Source: Gammaproteobacteria bacterium
Lineage (GTDB): Bacteria; Pseudomonadota; Gammaproteobacteria; Thiohalospirales; Thiohalospiraceae
DNA: 64,000 bases
Direction of reading: 5' to 3'
Assembly: GCA_015490535.1 (NCBI GenBank)
Contig: WFXP01000107.1
Coordinates: 3,548 to 67,547 of the forward strand
The notes below the pieces were generated by a model, which had not been told where the DNA came from, ran no database searches, and saw nothing but the letters and a program-made list of their open reading frames with translations. This document shows, in pieces, positions 323-56,352 of this stretch; within the stretch, counting starts at the first letter, position 1, and the number at the start of each line of letters is the position of its first letter. The translations under genes were made by a program, and so were the position numbers.

Positions 323-918
323 GTGTACCACTCACTGGTGAGACGCCAGCGCGACGACAGATAGGCCAGCAGACGCAGTGGCTGCGGCAGTGACTCGATG
401 TCCAGGGCTACCCGCATGCGCGCCGTGTACTGCCCGCCGGAGGGGAGCAGATTGGCATCCAGCAGGGGGAGATCCTTGAGCCGCCCCAGCGCCTCCAGGG
501 CGTCGTCCAGCTTCTGGTAGCTGGTTTCGGTGCCCATATTGAGGTTGCTGAGCACGTAGTGCTGGGCGAGGGCGAAATAGCGCAGGCGGGAACGCTGCTT
601 GATCACCGCCAGGCGCTCGTCCCACCACGGCCAGGGACGGTTCTGCAGCAGCTCGATGCGCAGCTCTATGGTCAGCGGAACCCCGTTGTGCAGCGCCTCC
701 AGCACCGGCTTGGTGAGTTCGTAGTGGATCTCCGCATTCACCATGTAGACGCGGTTGTCCAGATAGAGATGGGCGCTGCGGATGGTAAAGGGTTGCGCCT
801 CCGCCCTGGCCAGGAGAGGCGAGGCCAGCAGCAGGGTGACGATCAGCAGATCGGTCAGATAGCGGCCGTTGCCGATACGCAGCATGTTTACCGTATACAA
901 GAGGCGGTCATCCCGCAT
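304..918 (-). CDS. DUF4390-like periplasmic protein
   Basis: 204-aa ORF with a signal-like N-terminus (LLIVTLLLASPLLARAEA). Its position directly downstream of rsmB is typical for DUF4390. An alternative start exists at 885. Confidence 0.55.
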   Translation of the reverse strand: MRDDRLLYTVNMLRIGNGRYLTDLLIVTLLLASPLLARAEAQPFTIRSAHLYLDNRVYMVNAEIHYELTKPVLEALHNGVPLTIELRIELLQNRPWPWWDERLAVIKQRSRLRYFALAQHYVLSNLNMGTETSYQKLDDALEALGRLKDLPLLDANLLPSGGQYTARMRVALDIESLPQPLRLLAYLSSRWRLTSEWYTWAPRI

Positions 919-988
919 CTTTCACCACCTCTTTCCGGGAGATGGCCGGGCGCGCCGCTCCCCTACCCACGGCAGCGGGAGAGGCGGG

Positions 989-2290
989 TTAGCATACCTT
1001 CTGCAGACGTGCATAATAGAAACCGTCCATCTGGTCTTCTCCGGGCAAAATCTGCCTTCCCACCAATGTTGCCCTCCCCCACCCTGCAGCTATGGGCAGC
1101 TCCCTGGCATCTGGGTGTTTGTCAATGAAATCCGCCACTTGCTGGACATTTTCCCGTTTCAGCACGGAGCAAGTCGCATATAACAGAATACCGCCAGGCT
1201 TGAGTAAAAACCACAACGACTCCAGTATTTGTTGCTGTTTCGCCACAAGTGCGGATATGTCACTCTCCCGCCGCAACAGCTTGATATCGGGGTGGCGCCG
1301 GATCACCCCGCTGGCCGAGCAGGGGGCATCCAGCAGGACACGGTCGAACCGACTGCCGTCCCACCACTGCCGGGGATTGGCGGCATCCCCGACATGCAGC
1401 CGCGCCTCCAGCGCCAGGCGGGTGAGATTCTGCCGCACCAGTTGCAGGCGCTGCGCATCGCTGTCCAGCGCCACCAGCTCGGCCAGATCCGGTTGCAGCT
1501 CGAGCAGGTGCGCCGTCTTGCCCCCCGGCGCTGCGCAGGCGTCCAGCACCCGCTCTCCTGGCCGGGGGTCCAGCAGCCGCGCGGCCAGCTGGGCGGCGCC
1601 ATCCTGCACCGACACCTCGCCCGCGGCGAACCCCGGCAGCTCCTGCACCTCCACAGCCCGCTCCAGGATCACTCCCTCCGGGACATGGGGCGACGGGTTC
1701 CCCTCCATGCCGGCGGAACGCAGCTTGCGCAGCCACGCGTCGCGCCCGATGCGGCGCTGGTTGATGCGCAACGTCATGGGAGCCTGGGCGTTATTGGCGG
1801 CTACCAGCTGCAGCCACTGCTCCGGCCAGTCGTGGCGCAGCATGTCGAACATCCAGCGCGGATGGGCGCAGGCGGTGGCGGGATCCCGATCCACCAGCTC
1901 CAGGGTCTGCTCCGCGCTGCGCAGGAAGGCGCGCAACACCGCATTGATCATCCGGCCCGCCCAGGGCTTACCGATGGCGCGGGCAAGCGCTACCGTCTCC
2001 GAGACGGCGGCGTGGTCCGGAACCCGCAGATGGATCAGCTGGTACAGTCCCAGCAGCAGGATAAGCTGCAGCTCCCGGTCACGGCGCCGCAGGGGGCGCT
2101 CCAGATGACACGCGGCGCACGCCTCGAGCCGTGGCAGGAAGCGCAACACACCGAAGGCCAGCTGGCGGGCAAAGGCCCGGTCGCGGGATTCCGGGATCCG
2201 CGCCAGGATCTCCGGCATAAGCGTGGCGAGCGAGCGGCCCTGCTCCAGTACCCCGCTCACCATCAGCAGTGCGGCGCGGCGCGGGTTCAT
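989..2290 (-). CDS. rsmB: 16S rRNA (cytosine967-C5)-methyltransferase RsmB
   Basis: NusB-like N-domain plus SAM methyltransferase motifs (VLDACAAPGGKT, DAPCSASGVIRRHPD). ATG at 2288-2290 overlaps the fmt stop (ATGA). The track ORF extends to 2593 as an in-frame upstream extension. Confidence 0.9.
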   Translation of the reverse strand: MNPRRAALLMVSGVLEQGRSLATLMPEILARIPESRDRAFARQLAFGVLRFLPRLEACAACHLERPLRRRDRELQLILLLGLYQLIHLRVPDHAAVSETVALARAIGKPWAGRMINAVLRAFLRSAEQTLELVDRDPATACAHPRWMFDMLRHDWPEQWLQLVAANNAQAPMTLRINQRRIGRDAWLRKLRSAGMEGNPSPHVPEGVILERAVEVQELPGFAAGEVSVQDGAAQLAARLLDPRPGERVLDACAAPGGKTAHLLELQPDLAELVALDSDAQRLQLVRQNLTRLALEARLHVGDAANPRQWWDGSRFDRVLLDAPCSASGVIRRHPDIKLLRRESDISALVAKQQQILESLWFLLKPGGILLYATCSVLKRENVQQVADFIDKHPDARELPIAAGWGRATLVGRQILPGEDQMDGFYYARLQKVC

Positions 2291-3237
2291 CCGCCCAGGA
2301 TGGTACCGGGGTTCCCCAGCTCCGGATGTCCGTTGAGAAATTCGGCGGCTCCCATCTGCCTCCCACCTGCCCCCTGCAGCCGCAGGATGCGCAGCACCCC
2401 CTCCCCGGTGGCCACCTCGATCCCCTGCCGGCCGGCCCGCAGCACGGTCCCGGGCGCCTCCCTCACGTCGCGCTCCCCGGGCAGATCCGCCTGCCAGATG
2501 CGCAACGGCTCCCCGCCGACGGTGGTTCGCACCACCGGCCAGGGGTTGAATGCCCGGATGCACCGCTCCAGCTCCAGCGCGGGCCGGCTCCACTCCAGCC
2601 GGGCCTCGTCCTTCTCCAGTTTGGGGGCGTAGGTGGCCCGCGCCTCGTCCTGGGGCAGCGGATCGAGGGAACCCTCCACGAGCGATTGCAGGGTTTCGAG
2701 CAGGGCCCGGGCCCCCAGCCCGGCGAGCCGATGGTGCAACGTGTGGGCGGTATCGCCGGCGTGGATCGGAGTAACCAGCCGGTGCAGCACCGGACCGGTG
2801 TCCAGCCCCCGTTCCATCTGCATGATGCTCACCCCGGTCTCCCGATCACCGGCCATTATGGCGCGCTGGATGGGGGCGGCACCCCGCCAGCGCGGCAACA
2901 GCGAGGCGTGCACGTTGATGCAGCCAAGGCGCGGCGCTTCCAGCACCGCTTGCGGCAGCAGCAGGCCGTAGGCCGCCACCACCATCAGGTCAGCCCGCAG
3001 GGCGCGCAACCGCTGCGCTTCGGCATCATCGAGCGCCGGTGGCTGATAGATGGGCAACCGATGCTGCTCGGCCAACCTCTTGACCGCGCTGGCAGTGAGC
3101 CTGCGCCCCCTGCCCGCCGGCCGATCCGGCTGGGTATAGACCGCGCAGATCATGTGGCGCCCGTTCAGCAGGGCCTCCAGGGAGGTGGCGGCAAACTCCG
3201 GGGTGCCGGCGAATACGATACGCAGGGGGGCGCTCAT
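2287..3237 (-). CDS. fmt: methionyl-tRNA formyltransferase
   Basis: 316 aa. RIVFAGTPEFA N-terminus, HASLLPRWRGAAPIQ motif, def-fmt-rsmB synteny. Confidence 0.95.
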   Translation of the reverse strand: MSAPLRIVFAGTPEFAATSLEALLNGRHMICAVYTQPDRPAGRGRRLTASAVKRLAEQHRLPIYQPPALDDAEAQRLRALRADLMVVAAYGLLLPQAVLEAPRLGCINVHASLLPRWRGAAPIQRAIMAGDRETGVSIMQMERGLDTGPVLHRLVTPIHAGDTAHTLHHRLAGLGARALLETLQSLVEGSLDPLPQDEARATYAPKLEKDEARLEWSRPALELERCIRAFNPWPVVRTTVGGEPLRIWQADLPGERDVREAPGTVLRAGRQGIEVATGEGVLRILRLQGAGGRQMGAAEFLNGHPELGNPGTILGG

Positions 3238-3258
3238 GAAACGACCATCGCGGCGGGC

Positions 3259-3762
3259 CTACCCGGCCCTGCGGCGCAGCTTCTCCAGTTTCTTGCGGAT
3301 CCGCTGCCGCTTCACCTCCGAGAGATAGTCCACGAACAGTTTTCCCTCCAGGTGATCCATCTCATGCTGGATACAGACCGCCAGCAGCCCCTCGGCCTCC
3401 CGCTCGAACGGCTCGCCGTTCCGGTCCAGGGCGCGAAACCTGATCCAGGTGGCGCGCTGCACCGGCTCGTAGAAACCGGGCACGGAGAGACACCCCTCCT
3501 CATAGGGCTCCACTCCGGATCTATCCAGCAGCTGAGGATTGATCAACACCAGCGGCTGATCGCGCTGCTCCGACACATCCACCACCAGCAGCCGCAACCG
3601 CACGTTCACCTGGGGAGCCGCCAGACCGATACCGGGAACCTCGTACATGGTCTGCAGCATATCATCTATCAACCGCTGCAGGCCGGCGTCGAAACTGGTG
3701 ACCGGCTCGGTCTTTCTGCGCAGACGGGGGTCAGGGTAGAGGAGGATCGGGAGCCTGGCCAT
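3259..3762 (-). CDS. def: peptide deformylase
   Basis: 167 aa from the ATG at 3760-3762. Motifs [19 protein letters not shown]. The track ORF 3259..5004 is an upstream extension. Confidence 0.95.
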
Positions 3763-3861
3763 CTGGAAGCTGACGTTTCGGTTACGGTTGCGGTCGCGGT
3801 TAAGGATAATGATACTCGAACCGATATAGATTGTAACGTAACCAATCCGAAGGGAGTGCAG

Positions 3862-4911
3862 ATGGTCTCCATGTTCGACGTTGCGGGCAGAGCCGTTGTC
3901 CTCATGCTGCTGTTCTGCTGCGCGGCCGGGCCCGCCCTGGCGCAGCAGATTGACCTGAACCCTGATCACCCTGACCGCTACGTGGTGGTCAAGGGGGACA
4001 CCCTGTGGGACATATCCGCGCGTTTCCTGCGCGATCCCTGGATGTGGCCGGAGGTGTGGCAGGCCAACCCGCAGATCGCCAACCCCCACCTGATCTATCC
4101 AGGCGACACCATCGCCCTGGAGTACCATGACGGCAGGCCGGTGCTGCGCCTGGAGCGCGGCCGTAGGACGGTCAAGCTCTCCCCCAAGGTGCGTGCGCAG
4201 GAGCTGGATCAGGCCATCCCCACCATCGATCCCGACGCCATCCGCCACTTTCTCAACCGGGCCCGCGTGGTGAGCGAAGAGGAGCTGGAGCGCTCCCCCT
4301 ATGTGCTGGGAGGGGTGGAGAGGCGCCTGCTGGCCGGAACCCCCGGAGAGCACATCTACGCGCGCGGCATCACCGACCAGGAGGTGCGCCGGTTCGGAAT
4401 CTACCGCACCGGCAAGAGATACCTGAACCCGGCCGACAAAAAGGAGGTCCTGGGACACGAGGTGGTACGGGTGGCGACCGCGGTGCTGGAGAGCAGGGGC
4501 GATCCCGCAACCCTGCGCGTAACCGAGATAAACCGCGAGATCCGCGCAGGTGATCGCCTGCTGCCCATCGGCAGAGACAGCGCCGCCGACATCCACCTGT
4601 TCCCGCGCGCCCCTCAAGCCGGCGCCAGGGGGAGTATCATCTCGGTCTTCGACGGGGTGACCATGGTGGGTCAATACCAGGGTGTGGTGCTCAACCTGGG
4701 ACACCAGCAGGGGATCCAGGCGGGCCATGTGCTGGCGGTATATCAGGCCAACGGCGTGATCCGTGACCCGGTGACCGGCGAACAGGTGGAGCTGCCGGAG
4801 GAGCGCGCCGGCGTGCTGCTGGTGTTCCGTACCTTCGATCGGGTGAGCTATGCGCTGTTGATGGAATCCACGCGGCCGGTCAGGGTTGGGGATGGTGTGC
4901 GTAATCCGTGA
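3862..4911 (+). CDS. LysM peptidoglycan-binding domain protein (TsaP-like, conserved def/dprA neighbour)
   Basis: Signal peptide ([16 protein letters not shown]) then a LysM motif ([17 protein letters not shown]...IYPGD). It is the 3' part of track ORF 2269..4911. ATG at 3862 (alternative at 3871). Confidence 0.75.
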
Positions 4912-50888: not shown

Positions 50889-51347
50889 CTACCTTCCCTG
50901 GTATCCATGGGGTAAACAGATCCGCCGCCCCAGTTCCATGCATTAATTTTAACACCTGCCCGGAGCCGTTGCCGCATAACGGGTGGGGATTTGCTCATGA
51001 TGGTGATGCGGTGACGCCACCGGCGCAGGGGCTGTGCCCGTTCCGCCGGCTGCACCCCCGGCGCCCGGCAACCGAGACCCGTACGGAAACCGGCAAAGGC
51101 AACACCCACACCGGACATGACCCTCCTGCACCCCGGCAATTCAACAAGTTGCCCACATAACATAACTCACCTTCGCACTCTTTGTTATTATCTGGAGAGC
51201 CATGCCGCAGCGGCCACCCCGTCACCTATTCTAGAGGTGTCGAGGCGCTATACAACGCGCGGATGTCATATTTTTGTGGAAAAAGAGCCGGAGTTATCCA
51301 GCATGAAAATTGCGGGGAATTTACATAAATTTTACGATCGCGGATCC

Positions 51348-51700
51348 TAATGCTCTTTCAAAGTAATAAGTTAGGATCCAGAGGGGCGCTGAATCCGGAT
51401 TGGGTCTCCCTCAAATCTTATGGGTGAAATGGTAAATCATCCTTGACAGGCAGAATGCACGCCGGAAGATGGTCGGCAGAAGGGGATTGGGGAGAGTTTG
51501 GGATAGCCGGAGCAGTCGCAATTGGCGCAGCTGGTGGATATCCGCCACTCCCCGGCCTGCCGGCCCCAATCCCCTTCTGGTTAACGATTATGTGGCGTGC
51601 ATTCCGCCTGTCAAGGAGGGAGCCGCTACGCGGTGATTTACCATTTCACCCATACGATTTGAGGAAGACCATCCTAAGTTATAACCTTGAAAGAGTACTA
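51348..51700. mobile_element. family A nested palindromic MITE-like element, full copy
   Basis: TAATGCTCTTTCAAAGTAATAAG...CCTTGAAAGAGTACTA. The left linker carries an extra GCTGAATCCGGATTGGG module. Confidence 0.8.
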
Positions 51701-51766
51701 GGCCACGCGCCGTATCATGATGCGATGTCGAGCAGCATCCGGGAGAAGTGCGGCCACACCCCTCCC

Positions 51767-52384
51767 TCACCTGAGGTTCTCATCCAGGCAATGCTCCCGG
51801 ACACACTCCTGCCGCGTCACACCATCCACCCCGATCCCCCGCAGCTGCTCCTCCAGCTCCTGCAGCAGGGACTCGCTTGTCAGACCGGGGTGGACGGTAA
51901 CACGAAACTGGCAAGCCACCCCGGACTCCCGCAGCAACCGGGCGCTGCGCCACGCCCGCTCGCCGCTGCCGGGCACACCGGTGATGCGCGGATAGTCGGC
52001 CGGGGTGGTCTTGATATCCATCCCGACCCAGTCCAGGTGGGGAAGCAGGGGAACAAGCCGTTCCGGCCAGGGGCCGGCGGTGTGCAGCCCGATCTTGAAT
52101 CCCAGCCTGCGCACCTGCCGCAGCGCTGCGGGCAGCCCCCTCTGCAGGGTCGGTTCACCACCGCTGAACACCACCGCATCCAGCAGCCCCCGGCGGCGGC
52201 GGAGAAATCCGAGGATCTCCTCCCAGGAGAGCGACTTCGCACCCCGGACCGGAAGGAGATGACCGTTCTGGCAGTAGCGGCAGCGCCAGGGGCACCCCTG
52301 GCAGAACACCACCGCCGCCAGCTCACCTGGATAGTCAATGGTGGTCAGACGGGTGAACCCCCCTATCCGCAGGTCGTCCGGCAT
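51767..52384 (-). CDS. nrdG: anaerobic ribonucleoside-triphosphate reductase activating protein
   Basis: 205 aa from the ATG at 52382-52384. Radical-SAM cluster CQGCPWRCRYCQN, SGGEPTLQ. Confidence 0.9.
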   Translation of the reverse strand: MPDDLRIGGFTRLTTIDYPGELAAVVFCQGCPWRCRYCQNGHLLPVRGAKSLSWEEILGFLRRRRGLLDAVVFSGGEPTLQRGLPAALRQVRRLGFKIGLHTAGPWPERLVPLLPHLDWVGMDIKTTPADYPRITGVPGSGERAWRSARLLRESGVACQFRVTVHPGLTSESLLQELEEQLRGIGVDGVTRQECVREHCLDENLR

Positions 52385-52536
52385 TCCCGGAAAAAGGTGC
52401 GTTGGGCGTGCTCCGATCTCTTGCCGGGGTTGAATGCGGACACCGGGCGGTGATAGCCCATGACGCGCGTCCACACCTCACAGCACTGGCGCTCCTCCTC
52501 TTTCAGTTCGATGGTTCTGGTGTCGGGTCGAGACAT
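52363..52536 (-). CDS. 57-aa ORF encoding the NrdD-type glycyl-radical domain, separate from and out of frame with nrdD
   Basis: Own translation: MSRPDTRTIELKEEERQCCEVWTRVMGYHRPVSAFNPGKRSEHAQRTFFRECRTTCG. Contains the RVxGY..PV...N.GK..E glycyl-radical signature. ATG follows GAGGAGGGAG. Overlaps the nrdD 3' end by 34 nt and the nrdG start by 22 nt. Below the 60-aa ORF-track cutoff. Confidence 0.7.
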   Translation of the reverse strand: MSRPDTRTIELKEEERQCCEVWTRVMGYHRPVSAFNPGKRSEHAQRTFFRECRTTCG

Positions 52537-54557
52537 TGCTCCCTCCTCTTGCGTAACCGCAGTTCATCATCACAAACGGGACAAAACCGGTGCTCCCCAT
52601 CCAGATAGCCGTGCCGGGGACAGATGGAGAAGGTGGGGGTGACCGTGATATAGGGCAGCCGGAACCCCTCCAGGGCGCGCCGCACCAAACGGCGGCACGC
52701 CTCGGGGGTACTGATCCGTTCGCTCATGTAAAGATGGAGCACGGTGCCCCCGGTATATTTCTGCTGCAGCTCCTCCTGCCGCTCCAGCGCTTCGAAGGGA
52801 TCATCGCTGAAGCCCACCGGCAGTTGCGTCGAGTTGGTGTAGTAGGGGCGCTCGCGAGTGCCTGCCTGGAGAATTCCTGGAAAGCGCTCCTGATCCCTCC
52901 TGGCAAAACGGTAGGTGGTCCCCTCCGCCGGGGTGGCCTCCAGATTGTACATATGGCCGGTCTCCTCCTGGAACTCCACCATCCGCCCGCGCATGTGATC
53001 CAGCAGCCGACAGGCCAGGGCGTGGCCCGCGGGCGAGGTGATGTCCTCGGCGTCGGCGGTGAAATTACGCACCATCTCGTTGACGCCGTTGACGCCAATG
53101 GTGGAGAAGTGGTTGCGCAGCGTACCCAGATAACGCCTGGTATAGGGGAACAGCCCGGCGTCCATGTGGCGCTGGATCACCTTGCGCTTGATCTCCAGGC
53201 TGCAGCGCGCCAGCTCCAGCAGCTCATCCAGGCGCCGCATGAGCCGCTGTTCGTCGCCCTTGTGCAGGTAGCCCAACCGGGCGCAGTTGATGGTAACCAC
53301 GCCCAGAGATCCGGTCTGCTCGGCCGAGCCGAAAAGGCCATTGCCCCGTTTCAGCAGTTCCCGCAAGTCGAGCTGGAGACGGCAACACATGGAGCGTATC
53401 ATGTTCGGCTTCAGCTCGGAGTTGAGGAAATTCTGGAAATAGGGCAGACCATATTTGGCCGTCATGGCGAACAACCGGTCGGCATTTTCACTCTCCCAGG
53501 GGAAATCCGGGGTGATGTTGTAGGTCGGAATGGGAAACGTGAACACCCTGCCCCTGGCATCACCGGCTGTCATCACCTCGATGTAGGCGCGGTTGATCAT
53601 CTCCATCTCGGGCTGCAGGTCGGCGTAGGTAAACGGCATCTCCTCGCCGCCGACCAGCGGAACCTGCCCGCGCAGATCCTCGGGGCAGACCCAGTCGAAG
53701 GTCAGATTGGTGAACGGAGTCTGGGTGCCCCAGCGGGAGGGGACGTTAAGGTTGTAGATCAGCTCCTGGATGCACTGGCGCACCTCCTCGTAACCGAGCC
53801 CGTCCTTGCGTACAAAGGGGGCCAGATAGGTGTCGAACGAGCTGAACGCCTGGGCACCCGCCCACTCGTTCTGCAGCGTGCCAAGGAAATTTACAATCTG
53901 CCCCACCGCGCTGCTCAGATGTCTGGGCGGCCCCGCCTCCACCTTGCCAGGCACGCCGTTGAGCCCCTCTTCCAGCAACATGCGCAGGGACCAGCCGGCG
54001 CAGTAGCCGGCCAGCATATCCAGATCGTGGATGTGGAGATCTCCTTCCCGATGGGCCTCCCCCACCTCCGGGGGATAAACGTGGTTGAGCCAGTAGTTGG
54101 CGATCATCTTTCCCGAGGTGTTGAGGATCAGTCCGCCGAGGGAGTAGCCCTGATTGGCGTTGGCGCTGACCCGCCAGTCCTCCCGCCGCAGATACTCGTT
54201 GACCGAGGCGGCCACATCCACCAGGGTACGGCGATCCTGGCGCAGCTTGCGGTGCTGCTCCCGATAGATGATGTAGGCGCGCGCCGTCTTCAGATAACCG
54301 GCGGTGATCAGAACCTGCTCCACCACATCCTGGATCCGCTCGATATCCAGTACCCCCTGCCGGCAGATGTGGCCCAGCACCCTGACCACCTCTGCTCCAA
54401 GCCGGTACGCCTCCCCCTCCCCAAGCTCACCGCTCGCCCTGCCGGCGCGGCGTATGGCGGAATCGATCCGGCCACGATCGAAACGGACCCGGAGACCATC
54501 CCGCTGCACCACCCTGGTGGGCAGCCCGCAACCGGCAGAAACACTCTCGGGATACAT
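52503..54557 (-). CDS. nrdD: anaerobic ribonucleoside-triphosphate reductase catalytic subunit (class III), lacking the glycyl-radical C-terminus in this frame
   Basis: ATP-cone N-terminus (VVQRDGLRVRFDRGRIDSAI), class III core, C-terminal zinc-ribbon-like ICPRHGYLDGEHRFCPVC. The ORF then ends 23 codons later without any RVxGY motif. ATG at 54555-54557 preferred. Confidence 0.85.
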   Translation of the reverse strand: MYPESVSAGCGLPTRVVQRDGLRVRFDRGRIDSAIRRAGRASGELGEGEAYRLGAEVVRVLGHICRQGVLDIERIQDVVEQVLITAGYLKTARAYIIYREQHRKLRQDRRTLVDVAASVNEYLRREDWRVSANANQGYSLGGLILNTSGKMIANYWLNHVYPPEVGEAHREGDLHIHDLDMLAGYCAGWSLRMLLEEGLNGVPGKVEAGPPRHLSSAVGQIVNFLGTLQNEWAGAQAFSSFDTYLAPFVRKDGLGYEEVRQCIQELIYNLNVPSRWGTQTPFTNLTFDWVCPEDLRGQVPLVGGEEMPFTYADLQPEMEMINRAYIEVMTAGDARGRVFTFPIPTYNITPDFPWESENADRLFAMTAKYGLPYFQNFLNSELKPNMIRSMCCRLQLDLRELLKRGNGLFGSAEQTGSLGVVTINCARLGYLHKGDEQRLMRRLDELLELARCSLEIKRKVIQRHMDAGLFPYTRRYLGTLRNHFSTIGVNGVNEMVRNFTADAEDITSPAGHALACRLLDHMRGRMVEFQEETGHMYNLEATPAEGTTYRFARRDQERFPGILQAGTRERPYYTNSTQLPVGFSDDPFEALERQEELQQKYTGGTVLHLYMSERISTPEACRRLVRRALEGFRLPYITVTPTFSICPRHGYLDGEHRFCPVCDDELRLRKRREQCLDPTPEPSN

Positions 54558-54586
54558 CTTCCAGCACTCCCCCTTGAAGGCACTAA

Positions 54587-54633
54587 CCACAATATATCGC
54601 GCATTTTCAGCAAATCAACCCTATATATTGTGG
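54587..54633 (-). promoter_or_regulatory. tandem NrdR boxes upstream of nrdD
   Basis: CCACAATATATCGCGC (54587-54602) and ACCCTATATATTGTGG (54618-54633) match the 16-bp NrdR palindrome acaCwAtATaTwGtgt (about 12/14 core positions and 14/16). The starts are 31 bp apart. Confidence 0.6.
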
Positions 54634-54646
54634 TTGCTCGCATATA

Positions 54647-54660
54647 TTGACCTGGATCAA
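54647..54660 (-). promoter_or_regulatory. FNR/ANR-type box upstream of nrdD
   Basis: TTGACCTGGATCAA versus consensus TTGAT-N4-ATCAA (one mismatch), about 95 nt upstream of the nrdD ATG. Confidence 0.5.
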
Positions 54661-54891
54661 CACAGCCCGTCATCCGGATCCATGAAAAGCCGCACGACAG
54701 AAGGTAAAATTCCCGTCTCCCTCCGGAAACAGTATCGGCGGGGGCGGACAGCCGCCGACGAGGGAACTTAAAGCCCCGGACGTTGCCCCACCAATTGACA
54801 GGTCAGAGATCCAGCCACCGGTTTCTCCCATGAGCATCACTCAGCCACAGGCCACCTGCGACCCGGCCCGCACCCTCCAGAGCCACCAACC

Positions 54892-56352
54892 GTGCCGCCC
54901 ATGTTTCGCTCACCCATCCTGATTCTGTTGCTCATTCTGGGTACCGCCCCATGGCAACAGGCCCACGCCCTTTACGGCGATCTCCCGGAGATGGGCGACA
55001 GCACCGGCAACCTGATGACCCAGGAGGAGGAGCGACGGATCGGGGCGGAGTTCATGCGTAACGTGCGGCAAAGCCTGACCCTGCTGGATGACCCCGAAAT
55101 CAACGGCTATCTGCAGGATCTGGGAAGGCGGCTGGCATCCCACAGCGACCGGCCAGGTGACGAGTTCTCCTTCTTCATAGTCCAGGATCCGCGCATCAAC
55201 GCCTTTGCGGCACCCGGGGGGTACATCGGTATCAATTCAGGGCTAATCCTCAATACCGGCAGCGAGAGCGAGCTGGCCGCCGTGCTGGCTCACGAGATCG
55301 CCCATGTCACCCAGCGCCACCTGGCCCGCGCCAGCGAGGCGGCCAGCCGGATGAACCTGCCCCTTACTGCGGCCATCCTGGCGGCCATCATCCTGGGCGG
55401 GCAGGATCCGGATCTGGCCCAGGCTGCGATCACCGCCGCAGTGGCCGGAGGCACCCAGCGGATGATCAACTTCACGCGCAGCAACGAAAAGGAGGCGGAT
55501 CGGGTCGGGATCCGGCTGCTCCATCAGGCCGGCTTCGACCCCACCGCCATGCCCTCCTTCTTTCGCAAGATGCTCCCCAGCGACCGGCTCTACCGGGAGG
55601 TTCTGCCCGATTTTCTGAAGACCCACCCGGTAACCCTGGAGCGTATCAGCGACTCGGAGAATCGCGCCGCCCAGCTGGGGAAAAGGGTGCGCACCGTCGG
55701 GAACCGCCGCTACCAGCTGATGCGCGCCAAGCTGAAGGTGCTGACGAGCCCCACCCCCATCCAGGCGATAGAGCAGTTCCGCAGCCGTGACGGTGACGCT
55801 GCGAGATACGGCTACGCTCTGGCCCTGAGCCGCGCCGGACGCCACCGGGAGGCGCGGCGTGAAATCGGTGCGCTGCTGGAGCGGAACCCCGCCACCGTGG
55901 CCTACCAGCTCGCCCAGGCACGCATAGAGGCGAACGCGGGCAGGCTGGAACCAGCGCTGGAGATCTACCGTCGCAACCTGCGCCTCTACCCCCTGGACGC
56001 CACCCTCACCATAGAGTACGGCATGGCACTGCTGCAGGCCGGACAGGCCGCGGAGGCTCGGCGGTTGCTGCACCGCTACCTCACCGCCAGGGAGGCGAGT
56101 CCGAGAATCTACCGCATGCTGGCGCAGGCGGAGAAGGCGGCCGGCTATCCGGTGGCCTCGTTCCGCGCCATGGCGGAGTACTACTACCTGGAAGGGTTGA
56201 CGCTGGAGGCCCTGCGCCAGCTGCGCCATGCCCTGGCGGTGGAGGGGATCAGCGAGTACGACTCCGCCGCCATCCAGGCGCGCATACGCCAGCTACGCCA
56301 ACAGGCCGCCCTGGAGGCGGAGTCCCGCAGAGAAAAACAGAAGCCACGCTGA
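54892..56352 (+). CDS. bepA: M48 metalloprotease with TPR domain (BepA/YfgC-like)
   Basis: Signal peptide, HEIAHV zinc motif, C-terminal TPR repeats. ATG at 54901 is an alternative start. Confidence 0.85.
   Translation: MPPMFRSPILILLLILGTAPWQQAHALYGDLPEMGDSTGNLMTQEEERRIGAEFMRNVRQSLTLLDDPEINGYLQDLGRRLASHSDRPGDEFSFFIVQDPRINAFAAPGGYIGINSGLILNTGSESELAAVLAHEIAHVTQRHLARASEAASRMNLPLTAAILAAIILGGQDPDLAQAAITAAVAGGTQRMINFTRSNEKEADRVGIRLLHQAGFDPTAMPSFFRKMLPSDRLYREVLPDFLKTHPVTLERISDSENRAAQLGKRVRTVGNRRYQLMRAKLKVLTSPTPIQAIEQFRSRDGDAARYGYALALSRAGRHREARREIGALLERNPATVAYQLAQARIEANAGRLEPALEIYRRNLRLYPLDATLTIEYGMALLQAGQAAEARRLLHRYLTAREASPRIYRMLAQAEKAAGYPVASFRAMAEYYYLEGLTLEALRQLRHALAVEGISEYDSAAIQARIRQLRQQAALEAESRREKQKPR

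Follow-up and report, generated by a model that had tools for sequence, protein, structure and literature searches.

Reviews and recent structural papers place the radical of class III ribonucleotide reductase (RNR) on the C-terminal domain of NrdD. In the 64-kb window considered here, meaning the whole stretch of DNA that was analysed, an nrdD gene ends without a glycyl-radical motif and the motif lies in a small overlapping reading frame ahead of nrdG, which raises the question of whether the locus holds a damaged gene, an assembly error, a recoding site or a reductase built from two polypeptides. The first-pass annotation of this DNA had preferred the last of these, a genuine two-polypeptide NrdD, and that option is strongly supported by the recurrence of the layout, by its start signals and by the selection acting upon it. 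We put the probability at about 85% that the locus encodes a class III RNR made of two obligate polypeptides, its radical-bearing tail acting in trans.

Anatomy of the nrdD-nrdG locus

The absence of the glycyl-radical motif from nrdD and its presence in a 57-aa ORF in the -1 frame (52363-52536), both noted in the first-pass annotation, are borne out by coordinates and profile searches alike. The features of the locus, all on the minus strand, are the following.

51767..52384, minus strand: nrdG, radical-SAM activase, 205 aa from the ATG at 52384
52363..52536, minus strand: small glycyl-radical subunit gene, 57 aa, -1 frame relative to nrdD
52453..52467, minus strand: glycyl-radical motif R24-V-M-G27-Y28 of the small protein, with the Gly27 codon GGC at 52458-52456
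52503..54557, minus strand: nrdD large subunit, 684 aa from the ATG at 54557, with ATP-cone, barrel and Zn-ribbon and without the Gly motif
52506..52571, minus strand: C-terminal tail of the large subunit, DDELRLRKRREQCLDPTPEPSN, with a helix at residues 660-676 in the AF2 model
52539..52548, minus strand: Shine-Dalgarno (SD) sequence of the small gene, GAGGAGGGAG, inside the 3' end of nrdD and ahead of the small-gene ATG
52572..52622, minus strand: Zn-ribbon, CPRHGYLDGEHRFCPVC, residues 646-662, CPRH...CPVC
54587..54660, minus strand: putative regulatory region upstream of nrdD, recognised by consensus matches

The nrdD product, for which a length of 684-695 aa had been proposed, is best taken as 684 aa from the ATG at 54557, the start called in four assemblies, and the 695-aa form from the GTG at 54590 is set aside. 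It matches positions 2-532 of the 562 in the Pfam NRDD profile (PF13597; E = 4e-176) in a profile search that also returned an ATP-cone match, and positions 3-660 of the 684 in NCBIfam NF006126 (1128 bits against a cutoff of 548). The barrel bears an SMCCR finger-loop motif, and the MCCR finger-loop variant reported for the NrdDh4 group (PMC4493059) is present in split NrdD too. The features that mark a class III RNR, namely an NRDD barrel with finger-loop cysteines, a Zn-ribbon and an adjacent NrdG activase, are all found, and the one that the 684-aa chain lacks, the Gly motif, is located on the separate 57-aa ORF. The Zn-ribbon, conserved in all large-subunit homologues examined (best 120), is the final element held in common with single-chain NrdD ahead of the break point. 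The product can be aligned to Thermotoga maritima NrdD (4COI) as far as CPVC, and the chain break lies directly after the CxxC, which aligns to T. maritima residue 609. Only 22 residues separate CPVC from the end of the chain (...FCPVCDDELRLRKRREQCLDPTPEPSN; TGA at 52505-52503), and the glycyl-radical motif is absent from all 684 aa.

The product of the 57-aa ORF (52536->52363, minus strand) is MSRPDTRTIELKEEERQCCEVWTRVMGYHRPVSAFNPGKRSEHAQRTFFRECRTTCG. That this ORF has its own ATG and SD and overlaps both the end of nrdD (34 nt) and the start of nrdG (22 nt) was confirmed from the sequence, as was the closure of its frame upstream by three TGA codons (52572-52564). In Pfam NRDD it matches the final 32 positions (531-562 of 562; E = 3e-8), and a Pfam scan (E <= 0.01) returned no match to the PFL-type glycyl-radical family, the only significant matches being to NrdD profiles. 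The gene downstream encodes NrdG (TIGR02495, NrdG2; E = 6e-58, 195 bits against a cutoff of 131), which completes a three-gene operon layout in the order nrdD, small gene, nrdG; its start is most likely the ATG at 52384, and the 22-nt overlap with the small ORF follows from this choice. Upstream of nrdD, a putative FNR/ANR-like box (TTGATCCAGGTCAA; 54660-54647) is accompanied by two putative NrdR-box-like palindromes (54633-54618 and 54602-54587, centres 31 bp apart), all recognised by their match to consensus sequences; nrdG and these upstream sites are intact, as had been proposed. An Rfam scan of 51000-55500 returned nothing relevant, neither a known recoding element nor a riboswitch.

The two chains were also modelled with AF2 as a single concatenated sequence. 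The model from an 86-row alignment, which is biased to the canonical fold because the chains were covalently concatenated and fused homologues were present in the alignment, reached a pLDDT of 90.1 and a pTM of 0.85 and superseded a run without alignment (pLDDT 34.6). Gly27, position 711 of the concatenated chain, is predicted in the turn of a β-hairpin (strands 704-709 and 712-715; pLDDT 80-94), low confidence is confined to the artificial junction, and the best PDB matches of the model in Foldseek are class III RNRs.

Distribution and conservation of the split layout

The locus was compared in four independent assemblies (GCA_015492455.1, GCA_027054765.1, GCA_027048195.1 and ENA ERZ23495063), and the calls for the 684-aa nrdD, the 57-aa ORF and the 205-aa nrdG, along with their overlaps, are identical in all four. 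The alignment with relatives that had been suggested as a check reveals a discontinuous linker and a recurring split: none of the 120 closest large-subunit homologues (79-100% identity), among them those of Allochromatium vinosum, Marichromatium, Thiocapsa and Endoriftia, carries the Gly motif in cis. The wider family includes single-chain NrdDs: among the nearest cluster representatives at 50% identity, 47 of 150 have the motif in cis. Tail-less representatives with other endings, either of the CP[YF]xH type or with a redoxin fused at the C-terminus, also occur. At E <= 1e-3, searches with the small ORF recovered 898 homologue clusters, of which the best 120 are all stand-alone proteins of 50-98 aa, and a Pseudomonas small-ORF query recovered 1,364 clusters at E <= 1e-8. 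Stand-alone small homologues accordingly span 48-98 aa and about 900-1,360 clusters, and the small protein is encoded in at least 600 species-level genomes.

Classification of 83 loci gave 81 split and 2 fused. Relative to nrdD, the small gene occupies frame 0 in 22 of the split loci, frame +1 in 31 and frame +2 in 28, statistics that omit three Gly-motif sites at which the Zn-ribbon pattern was unmatched (L021, L034 and the second copy in L061). Across 77 non-redundant split loci the distance from nrdD to the small gene runs from -34 to +234 nt, ATG is the start codon of 76 small genes, and an SD core of at least 4 nt precedes 72 of them at a spacing of 5-12 nt, the start codons of a few small genes with far-upstream ATGs having been reassigned by SD scoring. 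Frame-0 loci have in-frame stops between nrdD and the small gene, and nrdG lies downstream on the same strand in 78 of the 79 loci analysed. The layout extends to well-studied organisms: in Pseudomonas aeruginosa, nrdD (675 aa) is followed by a 43-nt spacer containing AAGGAG, then by a 48-aa small ORF and by nrdG, and the same split is found in the finished genome of Cupriavidus necator H16, on pHG1.

The small ORF is under purifying selection, with a dN/dS of about 0.16 or less (pN = 0.16 against a saturated pS = 0.71; median Jukes-Cantor dN/dS 0.16), and its third codon positions are far less conserved than the first and second. Eighteen residues are invariant across the small-protein homologues and an N-terminal motif, [IL]-x-L-x-D-E-E-R-x-x-C, is conserved, while the very first residues differ in length and sequence among homologues, as expected of a true N-terminus. 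An ATG and SD of its own, conservation across taxa and purifying selection are together the marks of an independent gene. Fused relatives have only 4-6 residues between the CxxC and EV(W/Y)xRV(V/M)GY, and compared with fused proteins this locus has gained about 40 residues of junction sequence, complete with conserved motifs, an SD site and an ATG.

Part of this gain lies at the end of the large subunit. The first 9 residues of its tail match the family motif D-[EQ]-E-L-[IL]-A-[RK]-K-[QR], which is conserved, with an invariant D, among 152 unique tails compared and has no counterpart in the fused homologues sampled and aligned; the tail is a candidate helix to which the small subunit might dock. 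A universal metal site formed by Cys or His residues of the tail and the invariant Cys of the small subunit was also considered, and was dropped because 97 of the 152 unique tails have no Cys.

Alternative explanations

A programmed -1 ribosomal frameshift, or some other form of recoding, would fuse the two frames into a full-length NrdD and leave the small ORF without independent translation. The geometry of the window would suit such an event, the small ORF lying in the -1 frame with a 34-nt overlap, but the 58-nt window in which a shift would have to occur has no X XXY YYZ heptamer, in agreement with the first-pass annotation, and no homopolymer of 4 nt or more. Nor is the frame relationship conserved, as a programmed shift would demand: the three relative frames are similarly frequent among the 81 split loci, spacers extend to 234 nt and in-frame stops part the two genes in frame-0 loci. 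The near-universal ATG (76/77), the SD sequences (72/77) and the variable N-terminal residues likewise speak for separate initiation, and recoding is very improbable. The existence of single-chain NrdDs in the wider family (the 47 of 150 representatives with the motif in cis) lends some plausibility to a recent inactivating frameshift that would make nrdD a pseudogene in this strain, yet this explanation is more doubtful still, given that at least 600 species share the architecture, with the small gene in all three frames and with its own start signals, that the 120 closest homologues all lack the motif in cis, that the small ORF is under purifying selection and that nrdG is intact, as are the FNR-like and NrdR-like sites upstream. 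Moreover, some 40 junction residues gained together with conserved motifs, an SD and an ATG cannot be the outcome of a 1-nt lesion. A sequencing or assembly indel, for which the frame change itself is the sole argument, is barely conceivable, since gene calls and overlaps agree in four independent assemblies, the junction is free of homopolymers and finished genomes such as that of C. necator H16 (pHG1) have the same split.

The alternative that the small protein is a GrcA-like spare part for another, complete glycyl-radical enzyme, or that the radical of the large NrdD arises by some other route, is better motivated and still unlikely. It has a precedent in GrcA/YfiD, the rescuer of oxygen-damaged PFL (PMC8683613), and the view taken here is confined to 64 kb of a genome that may have a complete nrdD elsewhere. 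Within the window, however, there is no second nrdD; the significant profile matches of the small protein are to the C-terminus of NrdD and none is to the PFL-type domain; in 78 of 79 loci its gene is flanked by an nrdD lacking the tail on one side and by nrdG on the other; and the partner NrdD possesses no Gly motif for which the small protein might substitute. As the large subunit is without a glycyl-radical tail, the small protein is best understood as an obligate partner rather than a spare.

Proposed mechanism and relation to known systems

If NrdD is indeed an obligate two-polypeptide enzyme, the 57-aa protein, which comprises the glycyl-radical hairpin and the stretch behind it, would be made from its own SD and ATG within the end of nrdD, and NrdG, using SAM and a [4Fe-4S] cluster, would take a hydrogen from Gly27. 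Beyond the gene anatomy, homology, conservation, separate translation signals and operon linkage, which the comparisons show, we infer that the radical forms on the small chain and that this chain docks in trans: its hairpin would enter the NrdD barrel at the site occupied in single-chain NrdDs by the covalent C-terminal domain, where Gly27 would generate the thiyl radical with which nucleotide reduction begins. The two chains are probably joined through the tail of the large subunit (D-x-E-L-[IL]-A-R-K) and the N-terminal motif of the small one ([IL]-x-L-x-D-E-E-R-x-x-C). Speculatively, such an arrangement might make access easier for the activase, free the C-terminus of the large subunit, or allow the 57-aa piece alone to be replaced cheaply after cleavage by oxygen at the radical site.

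The split enzyme resembles T. maritima NrdD (4COI/4U3E; RNRdb subclass NrdDh) in fold and in the domain order (ATP-cone)-barrel-Zn-ribbon-Gly hairpin, and it resembles canonical NrdD/NrdG systems, which provide its best sequence and structure matches, in its adjacent nrdG. Unlike single-chain NrdD, it has a chain break that separates the CxxC of the Zn-ribbon from the Gly hairpin, bears a conserved extension at each of the new ends, and has the hairpin as a separate gene product of 48-98 aa with its own SD and ATG.

GrcA, a protein of about 127 aa encoded away from pflB, serves as a backup for a PFL already equipped with a radical domain. Like GrcA/YfiD, the small protein stands alone and is essentially a glycyl-radical domain and nothing else; for both proteins, activation by the cognate activase and docking in trans into a large barrel subunit are presumed. 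The analogy that had been drawn between the two therefore holds for mode of action and fails for family membership, GrcA being homologous to the C-terminus of PFL and the small protein to that of NrdD. The small protein has neither PFL-type homology nor a partner with its own radical domain; whereas the PFL partner of GrcA has one, the NrdD partner does not, and the small gene sits between nrdD and nrdG (78/79).

Benzylsuccinate synthase, with its beta and gamma subunits, and HPAD, with its small subunit HpdC, are likewise multi-polypeptide glycyl-radical enzymes with small partners. These partners are not known to carry the radical glycine, whose place is on the large catalytic chain; the small chain of the split RNR would, in contrast, be the radical carrier. 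A parallel in gene structure is the split class II RNR NrdJa/NrdJb of P. aeruginosa, an organism that has both RNR splits, in which an RNR catalytic chain is similarly fissioned into two consecutive ORFs. The two cases differ in RNR class and break point, and the piece detached from nrdD is the radical-bearing element, whereas NrdJb comprises an IscU-like domain and a zinc-finger domain (PMC9669993). The same paper raised the possibility that split domains are peculiar to class II RNRs. Literature on split RNRs and stand-alone radical domains yielded the split class II RNR and GrcA, and no description of a split class III RNR was found in the searchable literature, where an earlier mention of the small ORF is possible (Siedow 1999; Wei 2014).

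A broader proposal, to which we give somewhat better than even odds, is that the class III RNRs of a large clade, spread horizontally, constitute an obligate three-protein system of an NrdD core, an exchangeable glycyl-radical subunit of about 50-70 aa and NrdG. Among its members would be the RNRs of P. aeruginosa, C. necator H16, purple sulfur bacteria, Thiobacillus, and SUP05 and tubeworm symbionts, and it would be the first case of a glycyl-radical enzyme whose radical element is always a separate polypeptide, one on which the radical could be installed off-enzyme and which could be swapped when damaged by oxygen, a component overlooked by the RNR literature even in model organisms. If so, the system would offer a clean means of studying how activases reach their glycine, for which the domain of single-chain enzymes must flip out of the barrel, and would make the exchange of radical domains after oxygen damage testable, a matter of relevance to facultative and microaerophilic lifestyles. 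Cloning, expression and mutation of nrdDG in P. aeruginosa, Cupriavidus and sulfur oxidisers would have to change, as one would expect constructs without the small ORF to be inactive. The nrdDG system is needed for normal anaerobic growth and biofilm formation in P. aeruginosa according to PMC4860495, and is indispensable if denitrification is to run to completion in C. necator according to PMC2864759 citing Siedow 1999; these published genetics concern nrdDG, not the small ORF specifically, and the strains may differ from the genomes compared here.

The split layout also corrects annotation practice. The expectation that standard annotation would miss the small ORF did not hold, for gene callers found it in all four assemblies and RefSeq annotates its homologues (WP_120796139.1 in Thiocapsa rosea; H16_RS32675 on C. 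necator pHG1). RefSeq labels the small ORF nrdD, and the genome paper of C. metallidurans CH34 gives NrdDG as Rmet_5137 and Rmet_5139, with Rmet_5138 passed over. The named isolates recovered in the searches have mostly facultative and microaerophilic lifestyles.

Organization of the split nrdD locus

The class III ribonucleotide reductase (RNR) of the window is encoded by three close-packed genes on the minus strand, preceded by putative regulatory boxes recognized by their likeness to consensus sequences:

54660-54647, minus strand: FNR/ANR-like box TTGATCCAGGTCAA, upstream of nrdD
54633-54618, minus strand: NrdR-box-like palindrome CCACAATATATAGGGT, upstream of nrdD
54602-54587, minus strand: second NrdR-box-like palindrome, upstream of nrdD, its centre 31 bp from that of the first
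54557-52503, minus strand: nrdD, 684 aa from ATG (695 aa as the mechanical ORF from GTG at 54590)
52536-52363, minus strand: small ORF, 57 aa
52384-51767, minus strand: nrdG, 205 aa, matching TIGR02495

The boxes at 54587-54660 would fit an operon induced by anoxia and repressed by NrdR. In profile searches, the large ORF covers positions 2-532 of 562 of Pfam NRDD, along with an ATP-cone, and positions 3-660 of 684 of NCBIfam NF006126, while the match of the small ORF is confined to the final 32 NRDD positions (E = 3e-8). Alignment of the large chain to the solved structure of Thermotoga maritima NrdD reaches only the CPVC motif of the latter, residue 609 of 651, and the break is thus placed directly after the Zn-ribbon. 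Only 4-6 residues separate CxxC from EV(W/Y)xRV(V/M)GY in the fused relatives sampled, which carry the Gly motif in cis, and neither a second nrdD nor a second Gly tail was found within the 64-kb window.

The first-pass annotation had described the small ORF as lying in the -1 frame relative to nrdD, with a Shine-Dalgarno (SD) sequence GAGGAGGGAG at 52548-52539, three TGA codons at 52572-52564 and an overlap free of slippery heptamers; each of these particulars was confirmed on re-checking, and homopolymers are likewise absent from the overlap. Its preferred interpretation was a genuine two-polypeptide NrdD, with an assembly indel and a recent inactivating frameshift as the other options. An indel is contradicted by four independent assemblies that carry an identical 57-aa ORF with unchanged overlaps of 34 nt and 22 nt, and an artefact was therefore dismissed. 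A frameshift peculiar to this genome, or a pseudogene, was abandoned in turn because the nearest 120 large subunits share the tail-less form and at least 600 species genomes encode the small protein: R[VIL]xGY occurs in the last 80 residues of none of the 120 nearest large-subunit homologues listed (79-100% identity), among them those of Allochromatium vinosum, Marichromatium, Thiorhodococcus, Endoriftia and Thiolapillus, and stand-alone homologues of the small protein are widespread. The split indeed recurs in relatives, where 81 of 83 classified loci (a count that includes the window and the four assemblies duplicating it) are split and two are fused.

Recoding between the two ORFs is difficult to reconcile with these loci. 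Counted against nrdD, the small gene is in frame 0 at 22 loci, in frame +1 at 31 and in frame +2 at 28. Between the nrdD stop and the start of the small gene, the spacing ranges from -34 nt, the largest overlap and that of the window, to +234 nt among 77 non-redundant split loci. Of these, 76 use an ATG start and 72 present an SD core of at least 4 nt at 5-12 nt spacing. The three relative frames, the long spacers and the dedicated start signals identify a separate gene, and a recoding site was rejected.

Conservation and spread of the predicted radical-bearing protein

The small ORF retrieved 898 protein clusters at E <= 1e-3, and the best 120 of these are all stand-alone proteins of 50-98 aa with their own Met or Val start. 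An alignment of 31 sequences displays 18 invariant positions (R16, C19, E20, W22-P31, N36, G38, K39, E42 and R46) between freely variable N- and C-terminal ends. Across a 35-codon core from 79 loci, third codon positions are much less conserved than first and second positions; synonymous differences are saturated (pS = 0.71) against a pN of 0.16, and the median dN/dS of unsaturated pairs is 0.16. In 78 of the 79 loci analysed, nrdG lies downstream of the gene in the same orientation; the remaining locus is on a truncated contig. This conservation, the start signals, selection and operon linkage support a genuine class III RNR of two polypeptides, ancient and widespread, with the two-polypeptide reading as the first-pass annotation had proposed.

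The species genomes encoding the small protein, counted in a scan restricted to a single genome for each species, belong to Gamma-, Beta- and Alphaproteobacteria, with some MAGs labelled Geobacteraceae, Verrucomicrobiota, Omnitrophota and Elusimicrobiota, and a plasmid search added replicons in Ralstonia, Cupriavidus, Bradyrhizobium and Paracoccus. Large subunits remain 67-82% identical over all these taxa, which suggests that the operon has spread horizontally.

Two split-type operons occur in well-studied organisms:

Pseudomonas aeruginosa GCA_002136435.1, 1430-4342: nrdD of 675 aa ending CPKCDEELLQRSTPKSCCGGCGG; 43-nt spacer containing AAGGAG; small ORF of 48 aa, MNPNQLPEGQRQRCEVWTRVMGYHRPVAAFNAGQQSEHRERRHFRETR, joined to nrdG by an ATGA overlap
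Cupriavidus necator H16 megaplasmid pHG1, 771-3847: 676-aa 'ribonucleoside triphosphate reductase'; 142-nt gap; 66-aa CDS; activase

Published studies handle both systems as 'nrdDG'. They associate normal anaerobic growth and the formation of biofilm with the P. aeruginosa enzyme (PMC4860495), and state that complete denitrification cannot do without that of C. necator (PMC2864759 citing Siedow 1999). Operons of the split type thus work in vivo, a conclusion drawn from studies of nrdDG that were not aimed at the small ORF. In the genome paper of C. metallidurans CH34, NrdDG is given as Rmet_5137 and Rmet_5139 and Rmet_5138 is skipped; in RefSeq it is the small ORF that bears the gene symbol nrdD, the large one being named 'ribonucleoside triphosphate reductase'.

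The small gene is already annotated, since databases carry its products as 'anaerobic ribonucleoside-triphosphate reductase', 'oxidoreductase' or 'hypothetical protein'. Reviews, together with recent papers on structure and phylogeny, place the radical on NrdD's C-terminal domain and mention splitting for class II only, and a full-text literature search with incomplete coverage of potentially relevant papers returned no description of a split class III RNR; the biology of the small gene thus appears undescribed so far. Experimental follow-up in tractable hosts is merited.

Junction anatomy and proposed mode of action

Both new ends carry extensions compared with the fused relatives sampled. 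The large-subunit tail (52506-52571 in the window) begins with an invariant Asp in the consensus D-[EQ]-E-L-[IL]-A-[RK]-K-[QR] (152 unique tails), beyond which a variable stretch adds up to ~35 residues. Distal tails are enriched over the body of these homologues in Cys (6.4% vs 1.7%) and His (9.5% vs 2.7%), often ending ...C.H, with CCGGCGG in P. aeruginosa; 97 of the 152 contain no Cys. The small protein opens with 5-30 variable residues followed by [IL]-x-L-x-D-E-E-R-x-x-C-E-V-W-T-R-V-M-G-Y. An AF2 model of the two concatenated window chains, built on an 86-row alignment of fused relatives, tail-less large subunits and small proteins (mean pLDDT 90.1, pTM 0.85), predicts a helix at 660-676 in the large tail, ~20 junction residues of low confidence, and Gly27 (position 711) between strands 704-709 and 712-715 (pLDDT 80-94). 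The Gly27 region is thus modelled as the canonical glycyl-radical hairpin, an arrangement toward which covalent concatenation and the fused rows bias the prediction. Foldseek retrieved class III RNRs as top matches, with target-normalized TM-scores up to 0.77.

By homology, NrdG would form the radical on Gly27, and the hairpin would sit in the large-subunit barrel beside the finger-loop cysteines, as in single-chain NrdD, such that the split would turn the radical element into a diffusible, separately made cofactor protein. Plausible advantages are a glycine within reach of the activase without a domain flip out of the barrel, and the replacement of only a 57-aa piece following oxygen cleavage at the radical site, an economy that would suit the interface-dwelling sulfur oxidizers, denitrifiers and pseudomonads that stand out among the named isolates recovered. 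The large-subunit C-terminus, often Cys/His-rich and bearing a redoxin-like domain in some relatives, would also be freed.

In all features tested the system is a class III RNR, with the single exception that its Gly motif lies off the NrdD chain, and its finger loop is the MCCR variant reported for group NrdDh4 within the RNRdb subclass NrdDh (PMC4493059). Its mode of working may be likened to that of GrcA/YfiD, the spare-part radical protein of pyruvate formate-lyase; however, the small protein lies outside that family, being homologous to NrdD, its partner lacks a radical domain of its own, and its gene is consistently operon-linked. NrdJa/NrdJb, a split class II RNR in P. aeruginosa, is a parallel case, although the break point differs and the piece detached here is the predicted radical carrier.

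Related architectures and unusual loci

Chain endings were compared among the 150 nearest NrdD cluster representatives at 50% identity.

Endings of 150 NrdD cluster representatives
Gly motif in cis: 47
Chain end <=60 aa past CxxC, no Gly motif: 49
End after a CP[YF]xH-type half-site: 28
Longer extension past the first Zn half-site: 8 (redoxin-like CPNC stretch in 6)
Extension >60 aa past a complete CxxC site, no Gly motif: 1
Fragments: 17

Judged from these NrdD chains, tail-less NrdDs may be one of the main architectures in this region of the family. In the CP[YF]xH representatives (e.g. P0269, P0271, P0274, P0290 and P0303), the variant replaces the second CxxC of the Zn site and the chain stops ~20-50 aa later without a Gly motif; these may form a second group, independently split or otherwise organized. 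P0256, P0259, P0282, P0283, P0299 and P0300 also lack the Gly motif and bear a C-terminal CPNC extension with the appearance of a thioredoxin/glutaredoxin domain, where the freed C-terminus may have served to attach a reductant domain.

The only continuous ORFs among the 83 classified loci are L005 and L027. Their nearest relatives are split genes, and L005 retains the large-tail and small N-terminal motifs in full, L027 in reduced versions; both accordingly have the appearance of secondary re-fusions from an ancestor that was split, or of read-through errors in MAGs. In a Geobacteraceae MAG (L061, 2851-5087), a 312-aa ORF resembling a secreted protein with a PEP-CTERM-like C-terminus lies between the small gene and nrdG, and a partial copy of the small gene's 3' portion (4312-4527) adjoins nrdG. 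Many large subunits reach 1000-1879 aa, their matches to the query falling into 2-5 separate stretches (L022, L076 and representatives within P0241-P0390), with an additional segment of ~270-310 aa in L022 and L076, a pattern that fits intein insertions in nrdD. Finally, alignment of the large subunits of L027, L036, L050, L058, L069 and L074 to the window protein starts only around residue 100-110 of the latter, several of the ORFs having other sequence upstream, which would fit absence of the N-terminal ATP-cone.
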